Shown piece by piece: positions 10,229-46,200 of a DNA stretch of 64,000 nt (its first letter is position 1; each line of letters opens with the position of its first letter). The position numbers were made by a program, and so were the translations under genes. The stretch lies in IMG/VR virus record IMGVR_UViG_3300042892_003817, one strand, 5' to 3'. This DNA is from a virus. Lineage: Duplodnaviria; Heunggongvirae; Uroviricota; Caudoviricetes. The notes under the pieces were generated by a model. That model was not told where the DNA came from. It searched no databases and worked only from the letters and a program-made list of their open reading frames with translations.

Positions 10229-10279
10229 ATTGTTTATTATTATACCTAAATATATGAAATATATTCTTAGGAGGCAACT
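10229..10279 (-). promoter_or_regulatory. early promoter module
   Basis: tatacctaaatatatgaaatatattcttaggaggcaact. Confidence 0.5.
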
Positions 10280-14593: not shown

Positions 14594-14607
14594 AACCGTT
14601 TTTGTTT

Positions 14608-14652
14608 ATTAATTATACCTAAATATAAGAATAAAGATTCGTTCTAGCAACT
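14608..14652 (-). promoter_or_regulatory. early promoter module
   Basis: tatacctaaatataagaataaagattcgttctagcaact. Confidence 0.5.
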
Positions 14653-15061: not shown

Positions 15062-15231
15062 ACGTGTAGTTCTTTACTTCAAAAATTGTTAGAAAATCGT
15101 TTACTGGTAACTGTTTTGATAATGAGAAGAATTTTATTGCTTCTTCTCTACTTGCTGCATGTAATACTCCTACTGGTTCTTGTGTAGGGTTATTTTTTGA
15201 ATAAAAACAAAACTGTGGCATATCTCTCTAA

Positions 15232-15585
15232 TTAGTTGTTACTTGGTTCTTGTGCTGCTTGATTTAAAGCATTGATAATAATCTTATCTAGGTATTCGAT
15301 GTATATAAAGAAGCCTACAATCGTCTTATCCTTTAATTCTCTGTCTCTCTCAACTGTTAAGCCTAGAGCCGATAGTCCTTGATTCAATTTAGCTCCTAAC
15401 TCCATAGCGATGTCGTCTTGTTGTTGCTTAGACATACCTGCAAATGTAGTTGGAAGGAATTGTACTTTGATTCCTTTCTTATTTGGATCTTCGTTTACAT
15501 CTATCTTAAGGACAAATTTGTTTCCTTTGAAGTTTACCTTTGTAACTTCAGATAGCATCTCTTTTATTTCGTTGATTAAGCTCAT
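15232..15585 (-). CDS. hypothetical protein (117 aa)
   Basis: ORF. Confidence 0.45.
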   Translation of the reverse strand: MSLINEIKEMLSEVTKVNFKGNKFVLKIDVNEDPNKKGIKVQFLPTTFAGMSKQQQDDIAMELGAKLNQGLSALGLTVERDRELKDKTIVGFFIYIEYLDKIIINALNQAAQEPSNN

Positions 15586-15604
15586 ATGTTTTTGTTATAA
15601 ATAG

Positions 15605-16795
15605 TTAATTTTTACATACTATTAGATCGTTCTGATATTCTATAAGAGAGTTAATAGTTATTTTAAATACATCTAATTCAAACTCTCCTACTTCTCCACT
15701 CTCTTTTATAATCTCTGCCAGTTGTTGTATAACGCTGAAGGACTGTTGTGTGATCTGCTTTCCATCAAACTCTACTACGATATCATTTTCTCCTTGAGGA
15801 TCGTTCCACTTCGTATTAAGTACTCGTTTCTTTAAATCGTATGATGTATTTTTATGTTCAGTTTCATAGTAGGCTGCAAACAATATTCCCAGTTCATCGT
15901 TAATATAGATTCTATCGCACCAAGGTTCAAATGCTTCTAACATCTCAGAGTTACAATTGTTAACTACAAATGCTACATTATACTTTGGAGGTACGATTGG
16001 CTTCATTAATGAATCATGCTTTATAAACGATCCCCACTTACGAATAAACTCTCTACCATTCTTAGTAGTTGTGTATAACCACTCCTCACTATTCTTTCCA
16101 GCTCCTCCTCCGGCATGTTTATTAAATCTACTTCCTCTAGAAGTAAAATGATATACTAATCCATCCCATGATTGAATTACTTTGTAACCATTTAATACAA
16201 ATCTGTTAAATAGATCTGAGTCTTCTTTTGATTGAGGTGCAAATACTTCGTCATGTCCTCCTACTGCCTGGAAGTCTTCTTTATACATACACCAGGGAGC
16301 AAATATACCCTCAGTTGTTTTATCTTTATTTTGATTTTCAAAATGACCTATAGCATTTATTACTCCGTTGAAGTCTATCTCTTCTACTTCTATTCCCCAA
16401 TCTTGAGTAATCTTCTCCGGTCCTGGTGGATGAAGAGAAGGTTCTATTCTAGTTGCACTTACAACTGTTCCTCTTTTTAAATGCTTTAATATATTCTTAT
16501 CTAGATTAGGACCTGCAATCATATCGGCATGGAAGGCAAATATGATCTCTGTTCTTGCCATCTCAATTCCTTTGTCAAACATTCCTACAATTCCTATCCT
16601 TTCTGGACCTGGATTGACATGTGTGATAAGATCTTCATCGTTAAGAGATGTAATCCATTCTGCTGTTCCATCTGTAGAAGCATCATCAAGTACTAAGACT
16701 TCATGCTTGGTTCTAAGATTTCGAATTGATTTATAAGCTAATTGTAAAAACTCTAGATTGTTTCTGGAAGGTATTACGAATGTTATTTTTTGCAT
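15605..16795 (-). CDS. family 2 glycosyltransferase (GT-A fold) with a C-terminal extension (396 aa)
   Basis: N-terminal VIPSRNN...VLVLDDASTDGT motif (GT2 DXD-type); start overlaps the next gene. Confidence 0.7.
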   Translation of the reverse strand: MQKITFVIPSRNNLEFLQLAYKSIRNLRTKHEVLVLDDASTDGTAEWITSLNDEDLITHVNPGPERIGIVGMFDKGIEMARTEIIFAFHADMIAGPNLDKNILKHLKRGTVVSATRIEPSLHPPGPEKITQDWGIEVEEIDFNGVINAIGHFENQNKDKTTEGIFAPWCMYKEDFQAVGGHDEVFAPQSKEDSDLFNRFVLNGYKVIQSWDGLVYHFTSRGSRFNKHAGGGAGKNSEEWLYTTTKNGREFIRKWGSFIKHDSLMKPIVPPKYNVAFVVNNCNSEMLEAFEPWCDRIYINDELGILFAAYYETEHKNTSYDLKKRVLNTKWNDPQGENDIVVEFDGKQITQQSFSVIQQLAEIIKESGEVGEFELDVFKITINSLIEYQNDLIVCKN

Positions 16796-17634
16796 GATAA
16801 GTATTCTTTTATGTAATCTATGATATCTTTCTCAGGATTCCAACCTAGGATGTCTCTTGCTGCTGTATCTGTACATAGAGTTATCTCTGCTTCACCTGGC
16901 TTGTTCTCTTTATATTCTACCTCTATTCCAAAAGCATCTGCTATTTCATTAACTGAATAGTTATGTCCTTTTCCTAATTCAAATATAATCCCCCAAGCTT
17001 GTTTAGTATTCACTAATACTAATCCTTCTATAATATCATCAACGTGTGTGAAGTCTCTACGCTTTGTTCCATCTCCGTAAATGATTAGTGACTTACCTTC
17101 TTCAACTCTCTTCTCCCATGCTCCTATTAGAGTAGTATATCCTCCTTCTTTTAAATGATATGGTCCGTATACATTATAAAATCGTACTATGGTAGCTTTT
17201 AAATTGTAATGTTGTTCAAATAACTGGATTACTTCTTCTCCTACATCCTTACTAAATGTATATGGATTTTTAAACTTACCTGAATGATGTGAACTACTTC
17301 CTGCATATACAAGTGGTATGTTCTTATCGGAACAATACTTAGCTATCTTCATAGTAGCATAAGCATTAGTTATAAAGTACTCTTCCGGATTGATAAAGGA
17401 TGGCTGTATTCTAGCAATTGCTGCTAAATGATATACAATATCAAATTTACCCCATGCAGAATAATCAGATATGTTTCTTATGTCTTGTTCAACATATAAG
17501 CATCCTTCTTGATGATTGCTTTTCAATCCTGTGTTGTAGTTATCAACCGATACAACTTCATGTCCTTCCTCTAGAAGTCTTTTGATTAGATTTGTTCCTA
17601 CAAATCCTGCTCCTCCTGTTACTAGTACTTTCAT
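16783..17634 (-). CDS. NAD(P)-dependent NDP-sugar epimerase/dehydratase/reductase (extended SDR family, 283 aa)
   Basis: MKVLVTGGAGFVGTNL Rossmann GxxGxxG motif and a PYTFSK (YxxxK) catalytic motif. Confidence 0.7.
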   Translation of the reverse strand: MKVLVTGGAGFVGTNLIKRLLEEGHEVVSVDNYNTGLKSNHQEGCLYVEQDIRNISDYSAWGKFDIVYHLAAIARIQPSFINPEEYFITNAYATMKIAKYCSDKNIPLVYAGSSSHHSGKFKNPYTFSKDVGEEVIQLFEQHYNLKATIVRFYNVYGPYHLKEGGYTTLIGAWEKRVEEGKSLIIYGDGTKRRDFTHVDDIIEGLVLVNTKQAWGIIFELGKGHNYSVNEIADAFGIEVEYKENKPGEAEITLCTDTAARDILGWNPEKDIIDYIKEYLSCKK

Positions 17635-17644
17635 TCTATTTTGT

Positions 17645-18217
17645 TTATAGTATTTTAGCTGGTGTTCCTATATAAGTATAAGGACCTTCTGTTGATTTTA
17701 CAACTCCGGCATTAAGTCCGATTGTAGCAAAGCTATGTACTGATAGTTTTTCTCTAATTGTTGAGTTAGTTCCCATATACACGCAGCTGTAAATTGTTAC
17801 ATTACCTGATACAATAGCTCCTGGCATTGCACTGAAGTAATCTCCGATGATGCAGTCATGCCCTATTTGATTACCTCTATTCAGTAATGCATGTTTACCT
17901 ATTTTAATATTAGTAGTAAGTATTGAATAAGCACCAATAAAACTACCCTCTCCTATCTCCACATTATTCATTATAAGAGCTGTAGGATGTATGAAGGTAA
18001 AGTATTTAGTCTCTTTTGGAAGCTTCTGAACTATGTCGTACCTGTCCTTAGAGTCTCCTACTGCTACCATTACTTCATACTCTGTAGGATCAAAAGAAGA
18101 GATAGGTAATGTACCCTCTACTACATATTGATTATCTACAAAGCATATAAGATCTTCTCCCATTTGAGCTAAGACCTCTCTAGCATGTCCCCCAAATCCT
18201 ATTAAAGCTTTTTTCAT
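17645..18217 (-). CDS. sugar N-acetyltransferase, left-handed beta-helix (hexapeptide) PglD/NeuD-like (190 aa)
   Basis: N-terminal Rossmann-like MKKALIGFGGHAREV plus C-terminal hexapeptide repeats (IGxxxxIG). Confidence 0.65.
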   Translation of the reverse strand: MKKALIGFGGHAREVLAQMGEDLICFVDNQYVVEGTLPISSFDPTEYEVMVAVGDSKDRYDIVQKLPKETKYFTFIHPTALIMNNVEIGEGSFIGAYSILTTNIKIGKHALLNRGNQIGHDCIIGDYFSAMPGAIVSGNVTIYSCVYMGTNSTIREKLSVHSFATIGLNAGVVKSTEGPYTYIGTPAKIL

Positions 18218-18858
18218 CGTGTGTATATCTCGAACTTAGATAAGTCTGGGTAAGGTAATTCTAAATCAGCATTATGTTTCTTAGTACCGTCTAGTGTGTA
18301 GAATTGATTCATTAATAACATTCCTCTTGCTGCTAACTCTGGCATCATATAGAAATTCCATCCTAACATATCCAAATCATCTTCGTGGTACGAACATTCT
18401 CTTCTTCCACTATACCTAGCTCTCTTAAACCACAAGTAAGCCTCTTCGCTATCTGTCAGTATTGCTCCTCCTTTAGATAATTTAAAATGCTTATAAGGTC
18501 CTGTAAAAGATATACACATATGAGTTCCTTGCTTATACATGTCTGCTGTAAACGATAAAGCAGAGTCCCATACATTACTTCCTTTTAGATTATAAGCTCC
18601 TTTAATAGTTCTTCCCTCTACTATTTCAAACTCTACTCTTAATCCAGCATGAATAATCTCACATGGTACTGAAGGGTATGTTCTGTTTGGTATTTTTATT
18701 GTAGGAGATGTTATGCTCTTTTTTACATAGTTCTCGTAATATAGTGCTAAGAAAAGTCCGTTACTCATATTATCTAAAGTAATTACATACTTTGCTCCTG
18801 TATAATCTCCTAAGGCTTTTTCAAAGTCTTCTGTTATTTTATAGATTCCGTTTGACAT
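18214..18858 (-). CDS. minimal DegT/DnrJ-like PLP-dependent enzyme (214 aa, about 60% of normal length)
   Basis: FEKALGDYTGAKYVITLDNMSNGLFLAL and SFTGPYKHFKLSKGGA parallel the DegT N-terminal and lysine motifs. Confidence 0.4.
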   Translation of the reverse strand: MSNGIYKITEDFEKALGDYTGAKYVITLDNMSNGLFLALYYENYVKKSITSPTIKIPNRTYPSVPCEIIHAGLRVEFEIVEGRTIKGAYNLKGSNVWDSALSFTADMYKQGTHMCISFTGPYKHFKLSKGGAILTDSEEAYLWFKRARYSGRRECSYHEDDLDMLGWNFYMMPELAARGMLLMNQFYTLDGTKKHNADLELPYPDLSKFEIYTR

Positions 18859-19826
18859 TCTCTTAATGTATTAAATTCGTTTTTAAAAGTTTCTACAACT
18901 ATAGTACTTAAATGTGTTTTCTGTACATTCTCTAAAGCTTTTCTTCCGACTTCTTTACAGAATTCATCATCAGTAGAAAGTGTTTTAATACATTTCTTAA
19001 ATCCTTCGTAGTCGTCCCATTCGAAAGAAGTGTCTGGAAATATATTTCTCTGAGCATCTAGTTGAATATTACCTACCATAGGTACTCCGAGTGATCCAAA
19101 GTCTACTGCTGTTTGTCCTGCTGAAAAGTCCCTATGAATATCTACTCCAAATCTTGAAGTATAAGCAGTGGATAAAAACTCATCATGCTGCATATAGTTT
19201 AATTTTTTAAAACCTGGCATAGAGTACGAGTCTGGTAGTGGTAACATTCTTCCAATGTGAGGAGTTCTATCATAATGCATAGTATACACTTCTAATTCTT
19301 TAGGAACACTATCGTATACTAACTTGTGAGAGATCATACCTCTCTGATATCCCTTACAGGGATTAACTATAAACACATAGTTCCCTAAATGTTCTCTAGC
19401 TGATTCTGCGAAATGCCTAGTGCAGGGCGGTACCTTTATACTATTTTCTATAAACACTTTCATCATACGTTTTTCGTATTCATTAGAGCATAGGTATGCT
19501 TTTGCTTTAGACAGTATCTTTATATACATTTCTTGTTCTGGAGCTGACCAATCTAACCAGTCCCATACGGATCCTTCCTGTACAATATACACTTCATTAC
19601 CTTCTGTAAGACTATCGGCAATCTTTAACTTAGCCAACTCATCGTGAACAGGAGTGTTTATTACGATAATATTTCCAGTACCTTTTATTACATTAGGAAT
19701 ATCTCTCCAGTTTAAGATATACCAAGGAGCTAGCTCTATGTATGCTTGTGGAAAGCGATGACGTTCGTAACTGTAATGCCCTGGGCTTACATGCCAATCA
19801 CTTATGTAGTATACTTTTTTATCCAT
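18834..19826 (-). CDS. hypothetical protein, possibly a GT-B-like glycosyltransferase (330 aa)
   Basis: Operon position; weak DFGSLGVPMVGN resemblance to GT-B C-terminal motifs. Confidence 0.35.
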   Translation of the reverse strand: MDKKVYYISDWHVSPGHYSYERHRFPQAYIELAPWYILNWRDIPNVIKGTGNIIVINTPVHDELAKLKIADSLTEGNEVYIVQEGSVWDWLDWSAPEQEMYIKILSKAKAYLCSNEYEKRMMKVFIENSIKVPPCTRHFAESAREHLGNYVFIVNPCKGYQRGMISHKLVYDSVPKELEVYTMHYDRTPHIGRMLPLPDSYSMPGFKKLNYMQHDEFLSTAYTSRFGVDIHRDFSAGQTAVDFGSLGVPMVGNIQLDAQRNIFPDTSFEWDDYEGFKKCIKTLSTDDEFCKEVGRKALENVQKTHLSTIVVETFKNEFNTLRECQTESIK

Positions 19827-19842
19827 AACTTGTTTTATTATA

Positions 19843-20544
19843 TTAGTTTTTAACTAGACCTCTTTCACATTCGTATAACCAATCGGAATCCATGTAAGTA
19901 TTTGAAAGATAGCTCATACGTTCTACTCCATATGTCTGTGTAATTTTCCACCCCAGCATTGATTGTTGCATATTACCCATAGGACCTATTGGCATATTCT
20001 CTCCTGGCTCTTCCCATACTACTTCAAAGTCATTTATATCTCTTAGATATTTTCTTACTGTACATAGGAAGCTTTCTCTAAAGGTATAGGCCATTCCTTC
20101 TTTCTGGAAGTAGTGAAGACTCTCCGGACGTGATACTTCTAGTACTGTACGTGGAAAGAACTCCTCATCGTAGATTCTAGTTGGAGACATATAGTCTGGG
20201 TAATTCATTCCATTACCTACGAAGGCAGCTCCTTGCTCTAACCTTCCTATGCATTCATTAATGAATCCCCAATCCTTAACTATGATATCGTCATGCATTA
20301 AGAACAAAATAGTATCGTCAGCAATATCTAGGTAATCTAATGCTTGTTGATAAGCTCCATCCTCTAGTCCTAAGTTAGGAAACACTTTATATTCGAAGTT
20401 AGCTTTAACTGACTCTGAAGGCTCTCTATGACATGACCAAAAGATGTTTATTGAATCTTTATTTGCCTCTTGCAATTCAATTAATTCCTGTACTAATTCC
20501 GGGTATAGGTCAAAGTGCCACCCTACTATTATAAACTGTATCAT
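19843..20544 (-). CDS. hypothetical protein in the sugar operon (233 aa)
   Basis: ORF overlapping its neighbours. Confidence 0.4.
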   Translation of the reverse strand: MIQFIIVGWHFDLYPELVQELIELQEANKDSINIFWSCHREPSESVKANFEYKVFPNLGLEDGAYQQALDYLDIADDTILFLMHDDIIVKDWGFINECIGRLEQGAAFVGNGMNYPDYMSPTRIYDEEFFPRTVLEVSRPESLHYFQKEGMAYTFRESFLCTVRKYLRDINDFEVVWEEPGENMPIGPMGNMQQSMLGWKITQTYGVERMSYLSNTYMDSDWLYECERGLVKN

Positions 20545-21143
20545 AAACTATATTTTTTGGTGTTAAAGATTATACTACAAGAGTATTTTTGATTAGGTGT
20601 GAGTAGTTGGTACCCTACTTGTTCTTTAATGTCTGTAATTTTTACTTTGTTTAGATTATTCATCCATTCAACATCGTCTCTTACTTGTGAACCTCCTTCA
20701 AAGATTACTACTGAGCCTTTTTCAATATTACTCTTGCATCCGTTATACATTTCCAGTACCTTATCTCCATCATTGTCTATGTCAAAGTACAGTAAATCAA
20801 ACTCTTTACTAGGGTCGTCACAAAATTTAAAAAAGTCCCCATAGTCCACTTTTACATAGTCTTGTAATCCGTAGTGAGCTATATTATCCACTGCTACTTT
20901 ATAGTTCGGTGATGAGCCTATTTCCCCTTTACTTTGTTTTTCAAAAGTATCATATGTGAATACAATTCCTTGATGCTGTTCCTGTTCGTACAACTCTTTC
21001 AATGCAAGTCCCATTACTATAGCCGTGCCTGCATGCTCTGTTCCGTACTCTATGACTACCTTAGGCTTTATATCAAGTACCATACTGTACAACGTCTCCA
21101 GCCAAGGATATTTGTGTTGCGGTAATATATTTGCATATTTCAT
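20541..21143 (-). CDS. class I SAM-dependent methyltransferase (O-methyltransferase-like, 200 aa)
   Basis: VIEYGTEHAGTAI (motif I-like) and LLYFDIDN (motif post-II). Confidence 0.5.
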   Translation of the reverse strand: MKYANILPQHKYPWLETLYSMVLDIKPKVVIEYGTEHAGTAIVMGLALKELYEQEQHQGIVFTYDTFEKQSKGEIGSSPNYKVAVDNIAHYGLQDYVKVDYGDFFKFCDDPSKEFDLLYFDIDNDGDKVLEMYNGCKSNIEKGSVVIFEGGSQVRDDVEWMNNLNKVKITDIKEQVGYQLLTPNQKYSCSIIFNTKKYSL

Positions 21144-21149
21144 ATCTGT

Positions 21150-21374
21150 CTACTCTTGTTTAAAAACTTCTATACATAAAACATTCTTATCATTTATCAT
21201 AATCCAAGTACCGTCCTTTTGTTTAAACTTTGTGAACTGTCCTTGCCTGATTGACGTAGATACTACATCTGTAAATGTTCTCTTCTCTCCTCCTACAAAG
21301 TGTATAATCTGAGTTGTTAATTCTCCTACTGCTTCTGTAACTGATGATTTTAAATCTACTTTAGTATCTACCAT
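21150..21374 (-). CDS. hypothetical protein (74 aa)
   Basis: ORF. Confidence 0.35.
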   Translation of the reverse strand: MVDTKVDLKSSVTEAVGELTTQIIHFVGGEKRTFTDVVSTSIRQGQFTKFKQKDGTWIMINDKNVLCIEVFKQE

Positions 21375-22567
21375 CCTTGTTTAATTAAATCTACTATGTA
21401 CTGTCTCTCTTCCTCTGTTACCCACCACCCTACTGGTATGCATATCATATCTTTTGATACTAAATCTACATTAGGAAGAGGAGCTAAGAATTCTCTTGTA
21501 CAAGTATGCTTATCATTTCTTTCATGAACTCTAGAAGTAGCCACTCCGTTCTCAGACATATACTTCATAAAAGCATCTCTGTTCTCTACTCTCATAGTAT
21601 ATAGCCAGTAAGCTGATTCTTTTCTAGGATCATTCTCCAATAGAGTAACTCCTTTTACTCCTTGCAATTCTTTATTATAGAAAGCTCCATTTGCTTTATG
21701 CTTTGATATAATCTCTTCTGCATGATTTAGATTTGAGAGTCCTACTGTTGCACAGATATCATTCATATGGAATTTAAAACCCCACTCAGGAATATCTGAT
21801 TCACATCTAAAGTCTGATCTAGGACCTTCTCTATCAATACCGTACCATCTAGTTAGTTTTGCTCTTTTGTTTAATTCTATGAAAGGTGATGTCCAGAATC
21901 CTCCATCTACAGATGTTATATGTTTAATTGCTTGTAATGAGAATGTAGTAATAGTTTCGAATGTGCCGATGTTCTTTCCATCTAATTTACTTCCCATAGC
22001 ATGAGCAGCATCATCCATAATCATAAAAGGAAAGCCGTACTTCTCTCTATATCTTTTTTGAATAGCTTGAAGTTCTACTAAGTCTACTGGATATCCTCCC
22101 CAGTGTACTACGGCTACAATTTTAGTCTTCTCTGTTAATTTACTCTCTAAATCCTTTAAGCAAATATTCATTGTAGTAGGTTCCACATCTACCCATTTGA
22201 TCTTTAATCCATTTGCTAAAATAGGCCAATTGGTTGCTGTACAAGTCAACGCTGTTGTTAATACTTCATCCCCTTCTTCAAGTCCTGGCCAGTTCTCTGT
22301 TACCATAGCCGCTCCATCAAATCCTATTGATATTTTAGAAGGCTTTTTTAATAAATGGTATGCTAAATGTTCTGCTGATGTTGCTGAATTGTAAGTAATT
22401 ACCTCTGAGTTATCTACTTTAAGGAAGTTTTGTAATTTCTTTTCAAGCTCATTAACTTTAGGTCCCTGTCCGATAAAACCGCTATTAAGTACTTCACCCA
22501 CTTCTGCTGCTGCTGTTGGTGACATAAATACTTTAAACAGATCAATTTGTTTGTTTATTTTTTTCAT
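21368..22567 (-). CDS. DegT/DnrJ/EryC1/StrS-family PLP-dependent sugar aminotransferase (399 aa)
   Basis: NSATSAEHLAYHLL and FSLQAIKHITSVDGG (PLP-lysine) motifs at full DegT length. Confidence 0.8.
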   Translation of the reverse strand: MKKINKQIDLFKVFMSPTAAAEVGEVLNSGFIGQGPKVNELEKKLQNFLKVDNSEVITYNSATSAEHLAYHLLKKPSKISIGFDGAAMVTENWPGLEEGDEVLTTALTCTATNWPILANGLKIKWVDVEPTTMNICLKDLESKLTEKTKIVAVVHWGGYPVDLVELQAIQKRYREKYGFPFMIMDDAAHAMGSKLDGKNIGTFETITTFSLQAIKHITSVDGGFWTSPFIELNKRAKLTRWYGIDREGPRSDFRCESDIPEWGFKFHMNDICATVGLSNLNHAEEIISKHKANGAFYNKELQGVKGVTLLENDPRKESAYWLYTMRVENRDAFMKYMSENGVATSRVHERNDKHTCTREFLAPLPNVDLVSKDMICIPVGWWVTEEERQYIVDLIKQGW

Positions 22568-23178
22568 AATGTATCGTAGTAGTTGTTTTGTTTCTCTTGT
22601 CTGTCAATTGTCTTTGGATGGTACAAAGCCCATTCCTCTTCTACTGGAAGCATGCCATGGATCTTAAATCCTTCTAGTACTTCATGTACCTTATTAACCC
22701 ATTTAATGTAAGGAACATTCTTATAGATTCTCATTTGCCAATCAGCCCAGTTCACCCATCCTTTTTCATTTACATTCCATCCCCACTTCTGAATATGTTC
22801 TTGAGTTAGTCCTTCTACAGTATTTACTCTAGGTATTCTGAGCATATCAACATCGTTAGTCTCTAACAGTGTAGGTAGGTTTTGAATTAAATTGAGATGA
22901 GGAATCTCATCAGCATCTATTTGGAAGATATAATTTCCTGTACAATGTGAAGTCAGTAAGTTCTTCCAATCGGCAAAGTGTCCTTCGAATTTTTCACAGA
23001 AGACTTCACAGTCGTGTACTTGAGATTCTATATAATCAAATACTTCATCTGTTCCGTTCTTCTCATCAAACAAGATTACTATCTCGTCTTCTTTTCGTTT
23101 ATGTGAAAGGAGGAAGTTGACTAGTCTTTTCACTTCCTCCAATTCATTACAAACTGTTATTGCATAACTTATTTTCAT
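22564..23178 (-). CDS. family 2 glycosyltransferase, small GT-A (204 aa)
   Basis: MKISYAITVCNE and QIDADE (DXD) motifs. Confidence 0.55.
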   Translation of the reverse strand: MKISYAITVCNELEEVKRLVNFLLSHKRKEDEIVILFDEKNGTDEVFDYIESQVHDCEVFCEKFEGHFADWKNLLTSHCTGNYIFQIDADEIPHLNLIQNLPTLLETNDVDMLRIPRVNTVEGLTQEHIQKWGWNVNEKGWVNWADWQMRIYKNVPYIKWVNKVHEVLEGFKIHGMLPVEEEWALYHPKTIDRQEKQNNYYDTL

Positions 23179-23196
23179 ACTGTAAATATACGAAAT

Positions 23197-23655
23197 CTAT
23201 TTTGATTCTGCAACTTCTACATCAAAGAAGTTTATAGCATCTAATGCTTCCATGAAGTCTTCTTTCTCAAAATGTTTAATATTTTTCATATCCATTTTAG
23301 TTGTTTGACCTTTTGGGAACTTAGATTTCTCTTCTTCTAAAATCTCTATAGAGTTTACTGCAGCCCATTTCCAATTCTCTTTTGCTGTACCATCTAAGAA
23401 TACCATTCCCTTACCAGGAAGAGTAACTGTTGAAGGGAACCATACTCTCTTATCTTCGTCAATAAACATAAGATCTTTATAAAGTTCTGGTGATGCTTCT
23501 AGTGTTTTTGCTACTAGATCTCCTCCTTCAACCATTAGAGTTGAAGTTGAATATCCACAACCAAAGCAAAAGCTTGTTGTTACTTCTTCTGTTACTGCTT
23601 GTTCATAGCAAGCATTTCCTCCACAGTGTGGACAGATTGACATTTTTTCTTCCAT
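23197..23655 (-). CDS. zinc-ribbon protein (152 aa)
   Basis: CPHCGG...CFGCG four-Cys arrangement. Confidence 0.4.
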   Translation of the reverse strand: MEEKMSICPHCGGNACYEQAVTEEVTTSFCFGCGYSTSTLMVEGGDLVAKTLEASPELYKDLMFIDEDKRVWFPSTVTLPGKGMVFLDGTAKENWKWAAVNSIEILEEEKSKFPKGQTTKMDMKNIKHFEKEDFMEALDAINFFDVEVAESK

Positions 23656-24968
23656 TATTCTATTTTTTTAAGCCTTGGTATTTCAACTTTATTAGCCTGT
23701 GGTAATTCTATTTTCTTAAGCGTAGGTAGCTTTAACTGTACTTGCTTAGGGAACTCAGGAATGTACTGTGTTAGAAGGTTATCTAGCGTCTCTCTCATCT
23801 TCTCATAAGAGAACTCAGTTCTGCTCTTATGACCCTGTCTCTTTGCTAATTCCTTATATGGTTTATAATCTTCAAAGACATCTTTTAATGCCTTGCCTAC
23901 TAGCATATCATCCGGTGTAAACCATTGACTTTCTCTTAGTATCATCTTATCAATTGCAGCTGAAGGATGTACGTTTGTGAGTTGACCTCCTATTTGTTTT
24001 GTAAATTTATTATCTAAGAAGTCTGTATGACCTGACCATCCTGATACTATAATTGGTTTGTTTACTAAACTAAACTCTAATAAAGGTCTTCCAAATCCTT
24101 CTCCTTTTGTTAGAGAGATCATTGCTTTTACTTTACCGTGATTGTATAGCTCATTCATCTCAGCATCAGATAGCTCTCCATGTAGAAGATGTATGTTTGG
24201 TAACTTTCCTTTTACAGTTTTTTTTATTTCATCAATTTTATCCAATACAGCTTCTCTATCCATAATAGATGTTCCTGATCCTGCTTGTACTTTTAAAAGA
24301 AGTGCTGGTGCTGATTTCTTATTCTTAAATGTTTCAAGGAATGCTTTGATAGTGTATCCAATATTCTTTCTATCCTCTCCAAGTACTCCCGGTAGCCAAT
24401 GTCCTACTACTAAAAAGCAAAACATTTCATCGATACTATCTAAGTCTAGTTTTACTGGCCATGCCAATGGCATATACTTCTCTATATTAGCTCCTTCAAA
24501 TACTACTTCAACTTTAGTTTTTAATTCAACTACTCCTGTTACTTGACCTGTTTTTTCATCTTGTATATTGAATTTACTTTCTTCAAATACTTTCTTAGCA
24601 TGTTGTGCTGATACAATAACTAAGTCCATATTGTTACATCCCTGTACCCAGGAAGGATCACAAAGTGTAGTCTCAATACCAGCTGTTACTCCAATATTAT
24701 ATTTACCGACCTTTTGGAATTCATTCGGTACTGTAATTTGAATCCAGATGTCTGGTTGTTGTGTTAGTTGTGTAATAACTCTAGAGTGTAGAGATTCATT
24801 TCCGTGATCTTTTAAGTATCCAAATCTAGTATTACCCCATCTCTGTGATAATATTCTAACATCATACTTATCTGTATCGATAATCGATTGTACAAAGTCT
24901 CTGGCTCTTGCTCCGTATCCTGAATATGTATCGATAGGGCAGCTTACTACTAATGTAGGTTTACTCAT
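23655..24968 (-). CDS. GT-B fold glycosyltransferase (GT4-like, 437 aa)
   Basis: C-terminal EGFGRPLLEFSLVNKPIIVSGWSGHTDFL matches the GT4 E-x7-E nucleotide-sugar binding motif. Confidence 0.65.
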   Translation of the reverse strand: MSKPTLVVSCPIDTYSGYGARARDFVQSIIDTDKYDVRILSQRWGNTRFGYLKDHGNESLHSRVITQLTQQPDIWIQITVPNEFQKVGKYNIGVTAGIETTLCDPSWVQGCNNMDLVIVSAQHAKKVFEESKFNIQDEKTGQVTGVVELKTKVEVVFEGANIEKYMPLAWPVKLDLDSIDEMFCFLVVGHWLPGVLGEDRKNIGYTIKAFLETFKNKKSAPALLLKVQAGSGTSIMDREAVLDKIDEIKKTVKGKLPNIHLLHGELSDAEMNELYNHGKVKAMISLTKGEGFGRPLLEFSLVNKPIIVSGWSGHTDFLDNKFTKQIGGQLTNVHPSAAIDKMILRESQWFTPDDMLVGKALKDVFEDYKPYKELAKRQGHKSRTEFSYEKMRETLDNLLTQYIPEFPKQVQLKLPTLKKIELPQANKVEIPRLKKIE

Positions 24969-24970
24969 AA

Positions 24971-26413
24971 CTAGTATATTAATTTATGTGTGATATATTT
25001 TTTTGGTCGGTCCTCTATTTTGTAAAGATCAAATCTAGTTCTAGGAACAAACTTCTCAAATGTTTCATCCATTGAATCAAGTACATTCTCACACATCTGA
25101 CGTGCTGACATTCCTGATTCATCTGATGTTACCCATTCTCTTGCTAGTGCTCCTCTTCTGTTTCTTTCCTCTTTACCCATGTTGTAAACTTCTTCTAAAG
25201 CTTTAGCTACATCTTCTGGTCGACATCTATCATCAAAGATATAAGGAGTTGGAACTGAGCCTACCATTGAAATGTTTGAAGGGAATACAGGGACTGCCCA
25301 CTCACCACACTCCTTATATGTTCCTCTATGATTAGAAGGGAAGTCTGAAGTGAAGTCAATCCACTTACCGTTCTCATCTGTAAATCTCATTTGATCTTGC
25401 ATACCACCTGTTACGTTGGCAATAATCATCTTACCAGCCATCATAGTTTCAGTTAAAGACAACCCCCATCCTTCATTTGAAGTGATAAGCATTCCAACGT
25501 CTGCTATATTATACAGTAAGTTCATATGTGGAGTATCTAATCTCTCTTGTGAGAAGAATACATTTACATAACTGTCATCACAAATTGCTTCTCTTACTGC
25601 ATAAAGATCTGTACCATTTTCATCTACAGCTTGTGTATGCATTACAAGGGCACATTTCTTAGCTTTCTCTTCTCCGATCAAATCACAGAACATTCTATAA
25701 GAAAGAATTACATCTCCTGGAGATTTTCTTCTAATGTTTCTAGAGTTGAAGAATGCTACGAACTCGATATCTTTTCCTTGGAATAAGTCTTTCTTAAATT
25801 TACCTAGTGTTTCTAATTCATCTACTGAAGTCATAGGAAAGAAATGCTTATCGTTTATTCCATGAGGAACATACTTAAGTAGCTTACCCTTAGCTGCTTC
25901 TCCTAAAACTATTTCATTAATATTTTTAGTTTGTTTTGAGATTGCCATCAATAAGTCACATGACTCGTAGTAAGGTTTATTATACAGAGGTGCTGGATAG
26001 TCATCCCAAATGTTTAAATACATTAAAGGAATTTCATTTCTAATCTCTCTTTCTATTTCAAACAACCAAGTCCAGTATCTTGGATCAGTAAATATAAAAA
26101 TAGCGTCTGGTTTTTCTTGAGCAATTAAATTTCTTATTTGCATAGCATCTCCATAACCATTGTTAGGAATTACCTTTACATCAGCATCTTCTATACCGTT
26201 TAACTTTCCTACCTCAGCTGAGATATTAAATGCTTTACCTGCTTCTGGATGATTGATAGCTGCTCCTAAATTGACCCAATTAAAGTGGTGAGATGTTCCT
26301 ACAACAATCTCTCTGGCCATAGTTGCGATACCGGAATGCATCCTAATATCATCGCATAACAAGAGAATCTTTTTACGATCCTCCTTCTTAACATAACGAA
26401 ATTTTTCTTTCAT
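24971..26413 (-). CDS. GT-B fold glycosyltransferase (GT4-like, 480 aa)
   Basis: SNEGWGLSLTETMMAGKMIIANVTGGMQDQM motif. Confidence 0.65.
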   Translation of the reverse strand: MKEKFRYVKKEDRKKILLLCDDIRMHSGIATMAREIVVGTSHHFNWVNLGAAINHPEAGKAFNISAEVGKLNGIEDADVKVIPNNGYGDAMQIRNLIAQEKPDAIFIFTDPRYWTWLFEIEREIRNEIPLMYLNIWDDYPAPLYNKPYYESCDLLMAISKQTKNINEIVLGEAAKGKLLKYVPHGINDKHFFPMTSVDELETLGKFKKDLFQGKDIEFVAFFNSRNIRRKSPGDVILSYRMFCDLIGEEKAKKCALVMHTQAVDENGTDLYAVREAICDDSYVNVFFSQERLDTPHMNLLYNIADVGMLITSNEGWGLSLTETMMAGKMIIANVTGGMQDQMRFTDENGKWIDFTSDFPSNHRGTYKECGEWAVPVFPSNISMVGSVPTPYIFDDRCRPEDVAKALEEVYNMGKEERNRRGALAREWVTSDESGMSARQMCENVLDSMDETFEKFVPRTRFDLYKIEDRPKKYITHKLIY

Positions 26414-26417
26414 GTAA

Positions 26418-26600
26418 CTATTTTAATTTAATATTTGTTTGTGTGTGTAACTTTTGCTTGAAGTTATCTTCTGTAAGATATAAAAAAATTGCTCTGTCTA
26501 CAAGCTTTTGTAGAGAAAATTTATGCCTTACGCACTGTTCTTTAAATTCCTGTAGAAGATCTTCTTCTACCTTAACCGATGTTAATTTTTTAGTGTTCAT
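26418..26600 (-). CDS. hypothetical protein (60 aa)
   Basis: ORF. Confidence 0.35.
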   Translation of the reverse strand: MNTKKLTSVKVEEDLLQEFKEQCVRHKFSLQKLVDRAIFLYLTEDNFKQKLHTQTNIKLK

Positions 26601-26635
26601 TGTTTATATAATTATATGTATATATAAATATACCC

Positions 26636-27827: not shown

Positions 27828-27890
27828 AATAACATTTTTATATAACTATAATATAAGAAAAAAGGCCTGTAAAAACAAGCCTTATTTAAT

Positions 27891-37183: not shown

Positions 37184-37184
37184 T

Positions 37185-44529: not shown

Positions 44530-46200
44530 TTATGATCCTACTCTAGTTAAAAAGAGCTTGTTCATACGGAACCATCCCATGTACTCTCTTCCTTGATCAA
44601 AATAATCTTCCCAATCCTTCTCTGCTTTTAAATCTCGGACTAATCCTTTTTCTGCAAACTTCTCCCACCAGTAGTCTTTTGTTTGACAGTTTATATGACC
44701 TATTCCTTGCTGTCCTGGATGTGCTGCTGTGAAGATTAAAGTACCTCCTGGTTTAAGGTTTTCGTATAACTTTTCAACAATACTGTCGTTGTGTTCTGTC
44801 TCTATGTGCTCGGCTACTTCCAGGCAGATAATTAGTTCTGATTTATGGTTTAGGTCAAAGATACTCTTTTTAAAGAGAAAGTCCTGATCTTCTACTACAT
44901 CGTTAATATCGTACCCAATAGCATCAATTTTTTCTTTTCTTAAGGACCTTACATAAGTCCCACTCCCGCAACCTACATCGACTACTTTTTTAGGATTGTA
45001 ATACTTTTTAATCCACTTAGCTAGATTATCTGCAAATGGCTTTTCTTCTTCCTCCATATTTGTATAATTGAAAGCATCAGTCTTCCCTCTAGGAATATCT
45101 GTTTGATACCATCCTTCTCCTTCATAAACATTTAAAATATCTTTAAAATATTTTTCGTACATAGGAGCTACATTCTCTAATGAAAACTTTTCTCCATACT
45201 CTCTACAAGTCTTGTAATCTATTTCTCCGTTGTTAATTTTTATAGTTGCCTGCAAGTAATCATCAAACGTTCTACATCTGTAACCAGTTACTCCGTTTAT
45301 ATTATTCTCTGCAAAGGCTCCCCAGTCTGAGGTAATTGTTGGTGTTCCTGATAGTAAATTTTCTATTTGAACTCCTCCAAATGGTTCAACATATTGTGAA
45401 GGTAGGAAGCATCCTTTTGCACTCTTCATCAGTTCTTTTCTCTTTTCGGTTCCAGCATACCCTACAAACTCTACATGAGGAGGAAACTTTCCATCCTTAT
45501 AAGGTCCATCGGCGTCAATCTGTCCTGCTATCTTTAATTTATACCCTAAGTGTTCAGTAACCTGGATTGCTATATTAACTCCTTTTCCGTCAAAGACTCT
45601 TCCTAAATAAAGAAAGTAATCTTCTTTTTTATCGCTAAATTCAAAATCAGAGAGGTCGAAGTAGTTTGGAATTACTACTTCGTAGTTTTTCATATCGCAA
45701 TAATTCACTCCCATCAGTCCGTAGTATGCATGGTAGATTGCATAAGATTCAAATACTTTCCAATTTGCCCAATGCCCTCCTGCATAGCCTATTCCTGGTT
45801 CAACAGTTATTAAATCTGGATGTCCGTCACATACCGGCCTTACTCCTGACCCCCAGAATGGTAAAATGAAATCATTCTTCTGTTTTCTCTTTCCTATTTC
45901 CTTTATAGCATTTTTATAGAAGGTTTGATAGGCTTCATCCTCTACATTATATTTAAAGAATTTAGATTTATAGTCATGAGTACCGTATACTTTTTTCCAT
46001 ACCTTATTGGTGATAACTGTTACGTTTTCCGCATATGGAGCGTCGCTCTCCTCATGTCCGTAATGGTAGATAGTATGCCCTCTTTCCCCCATCATCTTAC
46101 AGAATTTCCAAGCCTTTTGTGTATAAGCACATGCTACAAATTCTCTATTAGTGATTGTATGAGGAAGTCCTAATACGTGGAATGTAAATTTATTATTCAT
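44530..46200 (-). CDS. bifunctional GT-B glycosyltransferase / class I SAM-dependent methyltransferase fusion (556 aa)
   Basis: N-terminal region with EPFGGVQIENLLSGTPTITSDWGAFAENNINGVTG (GT4 motif); C-terminal VVDVGCGSGTYV methyltransferase motif I. Confidence 0.6.
   Translation of the reverse strand: MNNKFTFHVLGLPHTITNREFVACAYTQKAWKFCKMMGERGHTIYHYGHEESDAPYAENVTVITNKVWKKVYGTHDYKSKFFKYNVEDEAYQTFYKNAIKEIGKRKQKNDFILPFWGSGVRPVCDGHPDLITVEPGIGYAGGHWANWKVFESYAIYHAYYGLMGVNYCDMKNYEVVIPNYFDLSDFEFSDKKEDYFLYLGRVFDGKGVNIAIQVTEHLGYKLKIAGQIDADGPYKDGKFPPHVEFVGYAGTEKRKELMKSAKGCFLPSQYVEPFGGVQIENLLSGTPTITSDWGAFAENNINGVTGYRCRTFDDYLQATIKINNGEIDYKTCREYGEKFSLENVAPMYEKYFKDILNVYEGEGWYQTDIPRGKTDAFNYTNMEEEEKPFADNLAKWIKKYYNPKKVVDVGCGSGTYVRSLRKEKIDAIGYDINDVVEDQDFLFKKSIFDLNHKSELIICLEVAEHIETEHNDSIVEKLYENLKPGGTLIFTAAHPGQQGIGHINCQTKDYWWEKFAEKGLVRDLKAEKDWEDYFDQGREYMGWFRMNKLFLTRVGS

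Follow-up and report, generated by a model that had tools for sequence, protein, structure and literature searches.

In mycobacteriophages, soluble phage-encoded glycosyltransferases, in some cases accompanied by methyltransferases, reportedly attach O-glycans to capsid and tail-tube subunits within the cytoplasm (Freeman et al. 2023, Cell Host Microbe). The glycosylation of Megavirinae virion fibrils is encoded in clade-specific clusters of 6–33 genes at a conserved genomic position, and the tailoring genes of Mimivirus include those for a Vio4NAc aminotransferase (L136), an N-acetyltransferase (L142) and a methyltransferase (R132) (PMC10117803). Among the cyanomyoviruses, S-SCSM2R carries 13 glycosyltransferases and 22 genes for "LPS / cell-wall synthesis and modification", and the host surface, DNA and the virion have all been proposed as targets of cyanomyovirus glyco-genes (PMC12801897). 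Here we describe an Immutovirus-like Flavobacterium myovirus with a modular island for building glycans in the cytoplasm, a variable version of this kind of system already known in large viruses.

Organization of the island

The window, that is, the whole stretch of viral DNA analysed (64,000 nt, IMG/VR record IMGVR_UViG_3300042892_003817), contains 13 ORFs packed within positions 15605–26413, all on the minus strand and separated from their neighbours by overlaps of 1–25 nt or gaps of at most 18 nt. This layout bears out the 11-kb island of 13 tightly packed genes proposed in the initial annotation. The island sits among genes for replication, nucleotide metabolism and lysis, with 20 kb or more between it and the structural module; it adjoins a PD-(D/E)XK nuclease and DUF3310, in a genome with a complete DNA 7-deazaguanine system. 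The features considered here are the following:

26418..26600, minus strand: 60-aa protein, directly upstream of the first GT-B gene
24971..26413, minus strand: core GT-B glycosyltransferase, 480 aa (PF00534, 29.5 bits, cutoff 26.4; phrog_2170, 1.8e-14)
23655..24968, minus strand: core GT-B glycosyltransferase, 437 aa (PF00534 weak, 23.0 bits, cutoff 26.4; phrog_2170, 3.9e-16)
23197..23655, minus strand: 152-aa protein with an N-terminal CxxC...CxxC zinc ribbon (weak matches, to Lar-type zinc ribbons only)
22564..23178, minus strand: GT2b, core minimal GT2 (GT-A) glycosyltransferase, 204 aa (PF00535, 7.9e-10)
21368..22567, minus strand: core PLP-dependent sugar aminotransferase, 399-aa DegT of the CalS13/AtmS13-like subfamily (PF01041, 1.2e-67)
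21150..21374, minus strand: 74-aa protein that travels with the aminotransferase
20541..21143, minus strand: probable class I SAM methyltransferase of Methyltransf_24/CmcI type (PF13578, 1.9e-5, 25.9 bits, cutoff 26.3; weak CmcI match, PF04989, 9e-4)
19843..20544, minus strand: 233-aa GT-A-fold protein (AF2 pLDDT 94.5; invariant H84-D85-D86)
18834..19826, minus strand: 330-aa GT-B-fold glycosyltransferase (AF2 pLDDT 90.8), first gene of an accessory three-gene cassette
18214..18858, minus strand: compact DegT-like protein, 214 aa (PF01041, 2.3e-9, 37.4 bits, cutoff 19.8), second gene of the cassette
17645..18217, minus strand: left-handed beta-helix N-acetyltransferase of the NeuD/PglD/VioB family (hexapeptide repeat PF00132 and PglD_N PF17836), third gene of the cassette
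16783..17634, minus strand: compact extended SDR acting on NDP-sugars (PF01370, 6.4e-44)
15605..16795, minus strand: GT2 glycosyltransferase, 396 aa, with an extra C-terminal domain of ca. 170 aa (PF00535, 6.6e-16)
44530..46200, minus strand: GT-B/SAM-methyltransferase fusion, 556 aa, accessory, beside the que cluster (PF00534, 3.6e-16; Methyltransf_23 PF13489, 1.4e-12)

The reading of the region as a phage-borne island for nucleotide-sugar tailoring and glycosyl transfer is upheld by the family assignments. Searches of Pfam, NCBIfam and the PDB agree with two GT2 enzymes, two GT-B enzymes, an extended SDR and a full-length DegT; the 214-aa DegT-like protein, the N-acetyltransferase, the probable SAM methyltransferase and, in the profile search, both domains of the fusion were likewise matched. 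Two of the initial counts require correction: the ORFs lacking a Pfam match are four (330, 233, 74 and 152 aa) and not three, and the four glycosyltransferases initially listed stand, but become six (three GT-B and three GT-A) once the folds of the 330- and 233-aa proteins are added, plus the GT-B/methyltransferase fusion. None of the 72 homologues of the 330-aa protein and none of the 147 of the 233-aa protein is annotated. The model of the former matched TarM, Gtf3/GtfC, SenB, SdgB and PglA in Foldseek (TM ca. 0.6). For the latter, PDB matches include chondroitin synthase, KfiA, WrtF, GtrB and KdsB, and its viral matches are GT-A proteins of giant viruses and phages; judged from this model, it is probably a glycosyltransferase and less likely a nucleotidyltransferase.

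No membrane segment was found in the island, with no hydrophobic 19-residue stretch above 1.6 in 14 proteins (maximum 1.29), and no flippase, polymerase, phosphoglycosyl transferase or GT-C enzyme is present with it.

A conserved core flanked by variable cassettes

The 13 genes are colinear with gp169–181 of phage immuto, with an overall nucleotide identity of 88.8 %, indicating that both phages carry the same island. Amino acid identity is 87–97 % per gene, except for GT2b, a divergent allele with 64 %, whose nucleotide identity is 61–76 % against 83–98 % in its flanks. The island genes of immuto were already annotated as glycosyltransferases, aminotransferases, epimerase and "pilin glycosylation protein", and no functional study of them was found in the literature searched. 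The whole genome of immuto shows no match to the GT-B/methyltransferase fusion.

In about 12 IMG/VR or ENA loci, a core formed by the PD-(D/E)XK nuclease, the 60-aa protein, both GT-Bs, in some cases the zinc ribbon, the GT2 and the DegT is retained with 40–60 % identity. Conservation is 43–57 % for the 480-aa GT-B (in 12 related loci), 40–57 % for the 437-aa GT-B and 49–59 % for GT2b, while the 152-aa zinc-ribbon protein occurs in a subset of relatives (32–46 % identity). The family profiles of both GT-Bs have as top PDB match the chlorovirus NY-2A protein B736L (3oy2; 4.8e-16 and 1.2e-3, respectively), which is thus the closest solved relative of these core enzymes. The 60-aa protein is found at the same position in related viral loci (32–58 % identity); it had no match in a Pfam search and, judged by eye, may be a small ribbon-helix-helix-like regulator. 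The 74-aa protein, also without a match in family searches, has copies 79–86 % identical directly after the DegT gene in two of the related loci, L002 and L007.

The core (GT-B, GT-B, GT2 and DegT) occupies one genomic position in the related phages and is flanked by highly variable tailoring cassettes. Between or after the core genes these contain extra GT2s, HAD phosphatases, GNATs, SAM methyltransferases, nucleotidyltransferases, formyltransferases, APS kinases and 2OG oxygenases. In L007, the DegT is 94 % identical and the upstream content is different; in L002, a GNAT replaces the cassette of the 330-aa protein, the compact DegT-like protein and the hexapeptide acetyltransferase, and the 330-aa gene is absent at that position. 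Both loci retain the pair formed by the SDR and the 396-aa GT2, the latter without a match in a PDB sequence search. The initial annotation had considered an island of this kind rare in phages, which holds for isolates, with Immutovirus as the only case among 50,697 records, but not in general: metagenomic relatives are numerous and larger glyco-gene sets have been published for cyanomyoviruses (PMC12801897).

Predicted donor sugars

The 399-aa DegT has 6310 homologues at E ≤ 1e-20 among 8000 candidates scored, and its bacterial relatives neighbour GT2, GNAT and Rml-type genes. Its PDB matches 4zwv, 4xau and 4zas (1e-93 to 1e-98) place it closest to CalS13/AtmS13 (ca. 1e-98), aminotransferases of natural-product sugar pathways, rather than to PglE, PseC or WecE. 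The 214-aa DegT-like protein, probably also an aminotransferase by sequence, had been regarded as its paralogue; with a BLASTP E value of 0.43 between them, it is not a recent one. Its family comprises 689 representatives at E ≤ 1e-3, most of those among the best matches listed having ca. 200–220 aa, and includes natural fusions to GNAT acetyltransferases, to GT1 plus FkbM methyltransferase, and to homing endonucleases. The N-acetyltransferase scores just below the cutoff of TIGR03570 (NeuD/PglB/VioB; 2.6e-45, 154.5 bits, cutoff 160.8), and is nearer to VioB (7txp, 3.8e-29, its top PDB match) than to 4m9c and PglD, which follow.

A dehydratase, aminotransferase and acetyltransferase trio directed to bacillosamine had been proposed. 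The SDR, which reached no NCBIfam equivalog, aligns best with the NDP-hexose 4-epimerases 4zrm, 7ys8 and 6dnt; its active site (S-S-S...YxxxK) lacks the Asp/Glu pair that serves 4,6-dehydratases as acid and base, and the loop from the catalytic Ser to YxxxK is ca. 12 residues shorter. By sequence it therefore looks like a 4-epimerase and not a demonstrable dehydratase, leaving the island without a recognisable 4,6-dehydratase. Bacillosamine is then not specifically indicated: the 4-epimerase-like SDR, the VioB-like acetyltransferase (VioB acting on dTDP-viosamine) and the CalS13/AtmS13-like DegT make an N-acetylated 4-amino-4,6-dideoxyhexose, formed from a host-supplied keto-sugar, the likelier product. 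The source of the keto-sugar is not encoded, so that the identity of the sugar is inferred from similarity.

The pathway could start from host keto-sugar nucleotides, most probably dTDP-4-keto-6-deoxyglucose from host RmlA and RmlB. One of these would be aminated by the CalS13-like DegT and, separately, the compact DegT-like enzyme and the VioB-like N-acetyltransferase would yield a sugar of the N-acetylated 4-amino-4,6-dideoxyhexose type. The SDR would interconvert C4 epimers of a donor sugar and the methyltransferase or methyltransferases would cap the sugars; sugar O- or N-methylation is the likely role of the enzyme at 20541..21143, whose homologues in relatives are flagged PF13578. The six glycosyltransferases, all soluble and equally divided between GT-B and GT-A, would then build a short oligosaccharide directly on a cytoplasmic acceptor, to which the fusion may contribute in the window phage.

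The acceptor

Three glycosyltransferases and the aminotransferase are conserved while the tailoring genes are swapped, which suggests a glycan with a constant inner part and a variable outer part, built on an acceptor that is likewise conserved. A phage-encoded acceptor is therefore the most likely one, and we tentatively favour, at somewhat short of even chances, an island that works in the cytoplasm to glycosylate a conserved acceptor, probably of the virion, namely phage-encoded surface proteins of the particle. Candidates in immuto are gp064, beside the major capsid protein, with 34 % Ser+Thr, and the tailspike gp101, with 28 %, a richness that is common in tail fibres and non-specific. 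If true, this would parallel the fibrils of Megavirinae, the capsids of chloroviruses and the capsids and tails of mycobacteriophages. The distance of the island from the structural module weighs against the virion-protein reading, since mycobacteriophage glycosyltransferase genes adjoin structural ones. The general O-glycosylation system of Bacteroidetes, also invoked initially, is periplasmic and lipid-linked and does not match a soluble cytoplasmic enzyme set.

Virion proteins and host surface glycans, both put forward in the initial annotation, remain live candidates, and the main rival to the virion-protein reading is remodelling of the host envelope, which we consider somewhat less likely. 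In that case, undecaprenyl-linked host intermediates of O-antigen, capsule or glycolipid, or else a core structure that is conserved, would be glycosylated at the cytoplasmic face, altering the surface of the infected cell to exclude superinfection or to stop progeny from adsorbing to infected cells and debris. The enzyme families are typical of bacterial surface-polysaccharide loci, where the bacterial homologues of the DegT reside, the cassette-type variability resembles that of O-antigen loci, and this is the standard hypothesis for cyanophage LPS-gene clusters (PMC12801897). Membrane segments are also missing from peripheral glycosyltransferases that work on undecaprenyl-linked intermediates in the cytoplasm, so that solubility is compatible with a lipid-linked host acceptor, and a conserved host molecule would be just as good a target for the conserved core. 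However, the window has no initiating phosphoglycosyl transferase, flippase, polymerase, ligase, GtrA or GtrC, and the conservation of three glycosyltransferases across phages of varied samples would be unexpected for a hypervariable host glycan. Scanning of the window ORFs and the immuto annotation likewise showed no integrase or lysogeny gene; the seroconversion systems known to us are those of temperate phages. A soluble product, either a small-molecule glycoside (of a pterin or deazapurine, a compatible solute or an antibiotic-like aminoglycoside) or a host cytoplasmic protein glycosylated during takeover, is improbable. Every enzyme is soluble, the aminotransferase has CalS13 and AtmS13 as closest solved relatives, and the fusion matches glucosylsucrose synthase (7fg9, 1.6e-19) and tetrahydrobiopterin glucosyltransferases (1e-8 to 1e-9), but these likenesses are confined to the generic nucleotide-sugar-binding domain (in the fusion, to the donor-binding domain only), genes for aglycone biosynthesis are absent, and six or seven glycosyltransferases are excessive for a simple glycoside.

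Bulk glycosylation of DNA is unlikely, and we regard as very improbable any nucleic-acid target, be it an RNA or phage DNA that is modified at low stoichiometry or in specific motifs, with possible participation of the fusion beside the que cluster. The nuclease, DUF3310 and the 7-deazaguanine system would be in keeping with it, and phage glycosyltransferases of LPS/teichoic-acid type are known to attach one to three sugars to 5hmC or 5hoC (bioRxiv 10.1101/2023.12.21.572611; PMC13326640). Additionally, 7fg9 tops both the PDB matches of the fusion and the structural matches of the Rhizobium phage RL38J1 glycosyltransferase, annotated as a DNA glycosyltransferase (PMC13326640). Nevertheless, LC-MS of virion DNA from immuto, which has the same island, found only dA, dC, dT and 7-(formylamino)methyl-7-deazaguanine (fdPreQ1), with all G replaced and the preQ1 amine formylated (PMC10516641). 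This contradicts, for a near relative, the initial suggestion that the preQ1 amine is the target; the DpdN formyltransferase is kept in the window phage (86 % identity). In agreement with the initial annotation, scanning the window ORFs revealed no hydroxymethylpyrimidine synthase. The scan likewise gave no ThyA-type hydroxylase or hydroxymethylase, TET dioxygenase or C5-methyltransferase, and where synteny would place the 423-aa ThyA homologue of immuto, the window has none. We know of no precedent for the synthesis of an amino-sugar or methylated oligosaccharide on DNA by six or seven glycosyltransferases.

Comparison with known systems

The island shares with the bacillosamine pathway of Campylobacter/Neisseria (PglF-PglE-PglD) and the dTDP-viosamine pathway (RmlA/B-VioA-VioB) a DegT aminotransferase and an N-acetyltransferase of the PglD/VioB family, but not a recognisable 4,6-dehydratase or a nucleotidyltransferase. 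Like T4 alpha/beta-GT on 5hmC, RB69/DLP3 arabinosyl-5hoC and the MT/TET/GT clusters, which make mono- to trisaccharides, it encodes phage GT-B and GT-A enzymes, and DNA glycosylation systems sometimes carry their own NDP-sugar pathway; these systems need a hydroxylated pyrimidine, from a ThyA homologue or a methyltransferase plus TET dioxygenase, that the window does not provide, and the DNA of island-bearing immuto has no sugar-adducted nucleoside (PMC10516641). P-SSM2, S-SCSM1 and S-SCSM2R are large lytic marine myoviruses that, like the island, have many glycosyltransferases, NDP-sugar epimerases and DegT-family genes, although from different gene families and in a different host phylum; a sequence search did not detect a homologous island in cyanomyoviruses. 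Mycobacteriophages reportedly have 1–4 glycosyltransferases and no amino-sugar pathway, and their glycosyltransferase genes adjoin the structural genes, in contrast to the 6–7 of the island, which come with tailoring enzymes and lie far from the structural genes. The Megavirinae clusters, as the island, combine nucleotide-amino-sugar tailoring with several glycosyltransferases; they differ in encoding a 4,6-dehydratase (R141), in their eukaryote hosts and in having virion fibrils as a demonstrated target.

Organization and family content of the island

Region 15605-26413 carries 13 ORFs, all on the minus strand, with overlaps of 1-25 nt or gaps of no more than 18 nt between adjacent genes. Pfam and other family searches bore out the sugar and glycosyltransferase island proposed in the initial annotation, and a family search likewise confirmed the separate GT-B/methyltransferase fusion at 44530-46200. 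Proteins were assigned to GT2 when their whole-protein score was over the PF00535 gathering threshold (23.3 bits), as occurs with the products of 15605-16795 and 22564-23178, and to GT-B group 1 (PF00534, GT4-like) when they scored above the 26.4-bit gathering threshold or had the GT-B two-Rossmann fold.

Genes of the island with an assigned family or fold, and the separate fusion gene
15605-16795, minus strand: GT2, 396 aa (PF00535, 6.6e-16, 59.1 bits)
16783-17634, minus strand: extended SDR (PF01370, 6.4e-44)
17645-18217, minus strand: hexapeptide/PglD_N acetyltransferase (family searches)
18214-18858, minus strand: short DegT-like protein, 214 aa (PF01041, 37.4 bits, cutoff 19.8)
18834-19826, minus strand: GT-B fold by predicted structure, 330 aa, without Pfam match
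20541-21143, minus strand: probable Methyltransf_24/CmcI-type methyltransferase (25.9 bits, slightly below the 26.3 cutoff)
21368-22567, minus strand: full DegT, 399 aa (1.2e-67)
22564-23178, minus strand: second GT2, GT2b (PF00535, 7.9e-10, 39.4 bits)
23655-24968, minus strand: GT-B (PF00534, 23.0 bits, below 26.4; phrog_2170)
24971-26413, minus strand: GT-B (PF00534, 29.5 bits; phrog_2170)
44530-46200, minus strand: GT-B/methyltransferase fusion (PF00534, 59.6 bits)

The two adjacent GT-B proteins (23655-24968 and 24971-26413) have in common their match to phrog_2170 and, in profile searches, to structure 3oy2. Six of the ten island proteins scanned against PHROGs gave no match, and neither did the 396-aa GT2 in a PDB sequence search. 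Four ORFs, instead of the three unknowns counted initially, had no Pfam match, and two of them were given a fold by structure prediction on deep alignments. For the 330-aa protein, the prediction was a GT-B fold (pLDDT 90.8), with TarM, Gtf3/GtfC, SenB, SdgB and PglA as Foldseek neighbours. The 233-aa protein, in which an H-D-D motif is invariant, was predicted to be GT-A-like (pLDDT 94.5), and it has GT-A enzymes and, less closely, nucleotidyltransferases as structural neighbours. The island thus contains, counting predicted structures, six glycosyltransferase-fold proteins in all. The two unannotated glycosyltransferase families represent new enzyme material.

The GC content of the island (0.34-0.35) is the same as in the rest of the window, so that it bears no mark of recent import. 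A scan of 14500-28500 that does not cover Bacteroidota promoters found no excess of promoter-like sites (53, versus 57.4 in shuffled sequences), and the only decent terminator-like hairpin in this interval (27883-27862) is upstream of DUF3310.

A conserved core with exchangeable cassettes

The gene content of the island is already deposited and annotated for Flavobacterium phage vB_FspM_immuto (Immutovirus; hereafter immuto), a 160 kb phage from the Baltic Sea whose host is Flavobacterium sp. LMO8. The island shows 88.8% nucleotide identity to that of immuto over its full length and is colinear with gp169-gp181, annotated as glycosyltransferases, aminotransferases and epimerase; a literature search found no paper on the immuto island. 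The exact version present in the window was also found in JGI metagenomes. Of 50,697 phage records, only those of Immutovirus contain the island, which is common in metagenomes; its supposed rarity therefore holds for isolates and not for metagenomes, while its supposed completeness fails because there is no recognisable keto-sugar-forming enzyme in it.

The whole window is syntenic with immuto and corresponds to the half of the genome devoted to replication, nucleotide metabolism and lysis, with genes for a PD-(D/E)XK nuclease, DUF3310, a GH19 endolysin, GroEL/ES and PolA. Two peptidoglycan hydrolase genes are present, for the GH19 chitinase-like endolysin and for a glucosaminidase-domain protein (28975-29586, 51393-51953). 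Several differences from immuto lie away from the island. An array of 21 tRNA genes (56666-60752, minus strand; GC 0.39-0.40) occupies a region with four annotated tRNAs in immuto, and a block of ca. 9.1-11.1 kb lacking an immuto counterpart includes a 278-aa SPFH/Band_7 family protein (9361-10197). Likewise, 48927-54525 looks like a putative RNA-repair module, containing two metallophosphoesterases together with an RNA ligase (52027-53154) and a cyclic-phosphate-processing receiver domain protein (cREC, 50237-50647) that have no counterpart in immuto.

The same layout appeared in about a dozen of 18 IMG/VR loci found through the aminotransferase, as well as in the related ENA/Logan contigs L002 and L003. 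These loci keep a core with 40-60% identity that comprises the PD-(D/E)XK nuclease, a 60-aa protein, the GT-B proteins of 480 and 437 aa, sometimes a Zn-ribbon protein, the 204-aa GT2 and DegT, whereas the genes between and after the core vary from locus to locus. A Pfam scan of 146 variable ORFs identified additional GT2s (9), HAD phosphatases (5), GNATs (5), formyltransferases (2), APS kinases (2) and 2OG oxygenases (2), in addition to several SAM-methyltransferase families and nucleotidyltransferases, with many ORFs having no family at all. The island of L002, a 152-kb relative, contains DegT, a GNAT, a 74-aa gene, a methyltransferase, a GT-A-like gene, the SDR, a GT2 and a Ugd-like gene. 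In the window the GNAT is missing, and there is instead a cassette with the 330-aa GT-B, the short DegT-like protein and the VioB-like acetyltransferase between the GT-A-like gene and the SDR. Variation is also apparent at closer range. Within flanks of 83-98% nucleotide identity to immuto, the GT2b segment (22487-23061) drops to 61-76% (64% for the amino acid sequence), a pattern suggestive either of allele replacement in one glycosyltransferase or of its rapid divergence. In contig L007, DegT is 94% identical and the downstream genes 92-99%, whereas the SDR is different and the upstream 10 kb completely different.

Predicted sugar-making pathway

The dehydratase, aminotransferase and acetyltransferase of the island had been read as a bacillosamine trio, with its sole SDR as the dehydratase. 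Extended SDRs carry characteristic catalytic motifs, such as the dehydratase Asp/Glu pair and the decarboxylase Ser-Glu. The catalytic region of the island SDR (A-G-S-S-S-H-H-S-G...N-P-Y-T-F-S-K), with a Ser-to-Tyr loop ca. 12 residues shorter than usual, contains neither the Asp/Glu (or TDK) motif of RmlB/GMD-type dehydratases nor the Ser-Glu of UXS/ArnA decarboxylases. It did not reach any NCBIfam equivalog, the scores for GalE (106 bits), heptose epimerase (102) and RmlB (99) remaining well under the respective cutoffs; PseB and Polysacc_synt_2 scored 32 and 43 bits, respectively. Among solved structures, the SDR is nearest to 4-epimerases acting on UDP-hexose, UDP-GlcNAc and UDP-GlcA. Lacking the catalytic acid/base residues and aligning best with 4-epimerases, the SDR is, as judged from its sequence, not a recognisable 4,6-dehydratase.

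The 399-aa DegT is most similar to the TDP-sugar aminotransferase CalS13 and to AtmS13 (1e-93 to 1e-98), with the next DegT structures only at ca. 1e-28; a literature search gave no paper on the function of either protein. In 33 bacterial loci with this DegT subfamily, the nearest neighbours are GT2s, GNATs, Rml-type SDRs, RmlC, RmlA and Methyltransf_24, as is classical for loci of surface polysaccharides with 6-deoxyhexoses. The acetyltransferase with hexapeptide repeats belongs to the family expected of a PglD-type enzyme (TIGR03570, 154.5 bits, cutoff 160.8), but its best solved relative is VioB, a dTDP-viosamine N-acetyltransferase, followed by WeeI and, in third place, PglD. By similarity only (CalS13, 1e-93; VioB, 3.8e-29), these two enzymes may catalyse a viosamine/fucosamine-type step consisting of a 4-aminotransferase and an N-acetyltransferase. 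With these affinities and the dehydratase missing from the trio, bacillosamine is a possible but not favoured product.

The 214-aa DegT-like protein had been considered a paralogue of the 399-aa DegT. The two have no significant pairwise similarity, which, together with the large family and fusions of the short protein, also rules out that it is a decayed duplicate. This compact family (ca. 205 aa) comprises 689 cluster representatives at E<=1e-3, most of the best matches listed being 200-220 aa long, and its natural fusion partners are GNAT acetyltransferases, a GT1-FkbM methyltransferase protein and homing endonucleases (with HNH, EndoVII or AP2 domains). These fusions argue for a putative working, phage-associated amination module, and the family, large and uncharacterised, is likewise new enzyme material.

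Neither a nucleotidyltransferase nor a dehydratase was detected in the scanned ORFs of the window; RmlA and RmlB, which would provide dTDP-4-keto-6-deoxyglucose, would have to come from the host. We also considered a route from UDP-GlcA to an aminopentose, prompted by the similarity to CalS13/AtmS13 and ArnB and by the Ugd-like gene beside the SDR-GT2 pair in contigs L002 and L027. It was downgraded because the window has no Ugd, the SDR has no UXS/ArnA Ser-Glu and in bacteria this DegT subfamily has Rml-type and GNAT genes as neighbours, not Ugd/UXS. In both contigs, the Ugd-like gene (15196-16053) encodes a 285-aa UDP-glucose/GDP-mannose dehydrogenase-like product and may be truncated or split; it is a hint of uronic-acid or pentose chemistry in some islands. 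On our reading, the island in the window would draw on keto-sugar nucleotides of the host to make one or two amino-deoxy sugars, including at least one that is N-acetylated and of the 4-amino-4,6-dideoxyhexose type, with further tailoring by epimerisation and methylation.

Published DNA chemistry and the nucleic acid hypothesis

The DNA of immuto_2-6A, digested and analysed by LC-UV-MS/MS, contains only dA, dC, dT and one more nucleoside, 7-(formylamino)methyl-7-deazaguanine (fdPreQ1), which replaces all dG and whose formylation was assigned to DpdN, a PF00551 protein (Cui et al., PMC10516641). The absence of any sugar-adducted nucleoside argues against DNA as the target. Since immuto has the same sugar island, this result, measured on immuto, contradicts the earlier idea that the preQ1 amine is the glycosylation site and makes bulk DNA glycosylation very unlikely. 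Newer routes to glycosylated DNA require a ThyA-type 5hmC/5hoC synthase, or a C5-methyltransferase plus a TET dioxygenase (bioRxiv 10.1101/2023.12.21.572611; PMC13326640). Neither a ThyA-type hydroxymethylase/5hoC synthase nor a C5-methyltransferase or TET dioxygenase was found among the window ORFs scanned, in agreement with the initial annotation, which saw no 5-hydroxymethylpyrimidine synthase. With no sugar adducts in immuto DNA and no source of hydroxylated pyrimidines among these ORFs, we regard nucleic acid glycosylation, for instance at low stoichiometry in the window phage itself, as a highly improbable function of the island.

The window contains a complete DNA 7-deazaguanine system (36257-43976 and 63023-63913), with QueF, an AAA_28 kinase-like protein, DpdN, DpdA, FolE, QueE and QueD, and a distal QueC. 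Its DpdN (37712-38239) is 86% identical to the immuto orthologue, and homology to immuto predicts that the DNA of this phage would also carry fdPreQ1. An Endonuclease_NS (DNA/RNA non-specific endonuclease) gene lies within the que cluster (41343-41927), its 82% identical immuto orthologue being situated elsewhere (9935-10510). Beside the cluster there is a variable spot (44530-46200 and junction 47540/47541 in the window, 26884-28917 in immuto), where the GT-B/methyltransferase fusion has no immuto counterpart, and immuto has an unusually long, 423-aa ThyA homologue and gp221-223, which are missing at the corresponding place in the window. The similarity of the fusion to pterin/BH4 glucosyltransferases covers the donor-binding domain only and was not taken to indicate that its acceptor is a pterin or a deazapurine.

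Candidate acceptors of the glycan

The island proteins and the fusion have no hydrophobic segments (maximum 19-residue Kyte-Doolittle mean, 1.29), and the island contains no flippase, polymerase, phosphoglycosyl transferase, GtrA or GtrC. From these predictions, all its chemistry would be cytoplasmic. Conserved glycosyltransferases with a swappable periphery are expected for a conserved acceptor bearing a glycan with a conserved inner and a diversifying outer part, and a phage-encoded acceptor, that is, virion proteins, fits this pattern best. Among the structural proteins of immuto, gp064, encoded just after the major capsid protein (contig L026, 8875-10515), and the tailspike gp101 (L025, 18759-21920) are rich in Ser/Thr (34% and 28% S+T, respectively), which is only a pointer to them as candidate O-glycan acceptors. 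We tentatively propose, as a possibility well short of even odds, that in one lineage of large aquatic Bacteroidota myoviruses the virions bear a coat of glycan assembled in the cytoplasm. The inner part would be conserved and derive from both GT-B proteins, the GT2 and the DegT amino sugar; the outer part would be hypervariable and cassette-encoded, constituting a phage "serotype" locus under diversifying selection.

Remodelling of the host envelope, with the glycosyltransferases acting peripherally on lipid-linked intermediates, is a serious alternative, if a rather unlikely one. Cyanophage LPS clusters are usually explained in this way (PMC12801897), and a conserved host molecule would also fit the comparative pattern; a hypervariable host O-antigen fits it less well. 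A soluble glycoside or host-protein target is poorly supported, and we consider it improbable.

"LPS-like" sugar genes are often numerous in large marine phages, and their target has never been settled, with host surface, DNA and virion all having been proposed. The same island occurs here in a cultured pair, immuto and Flavobacterium sp. LMO8, with published DNA chemistry, which makes it a tractable case; together with the comparative pattern, this makes the question of the target directly testable in that pair. What our analysis adds to the deposited annotation is the corrected pathway, two extra glycosyltransferase folds, the compact DegT-like family, the core-and-cassette architecture and the link to the published DNA chemistry, a strong argument against a DNA target. 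If virions are indeed glycosylated, virus-encoded glycan shields, known from giant viruses and mycobacteriophages, would also occur in aquatic phages of Gram-negative bacteria. This would be, to our knowledge, the first known virion-glycosylation system with its own amino-sugar pathway among phages of Gram-negative bacteria, and would open to experiment the glyco-gene clusters that marine phages carry and that still lack an explanation.

Comparison with known glycosylation systems

The island differs from the seroconversion Gtr system (GtrA/GtrB/GtrC) in that it contains neither a membrane flippase, nor a membrane-anchored bactoprenol glycosyltransferase, nor a GT-C, consistent with its lack of hydrophobic segments; a match to the "GtrB-like" phrog_841 covers only the generic N-terminal part of a GT2. 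With the virion glycosylation systems of Megavirinae, chlorovirus and mycobacteriophage it shares soluble virus-encoded glycosyltransferases, with or without sugar tailoring, and among solved structures its core GT-B family is closest to the chlorovirus protein B736L (3oy2). Analogous or larger glyco-gene sets occur in cyanomyoviruses, such as S-SCSM2R with 13 glycosyltransferases (PMC12801897). The Megavirinae fibril-glycosylation clusters contain 6-33 genes, are clade-specific and have a fixed genomic position, and they include a Vio4NAc aminotransferase, an acetyltransferase, a methyltransferase and glycosyltransferases (PMC10117803). By analogy, these clusters appear as the best-documented counterpart of the island.
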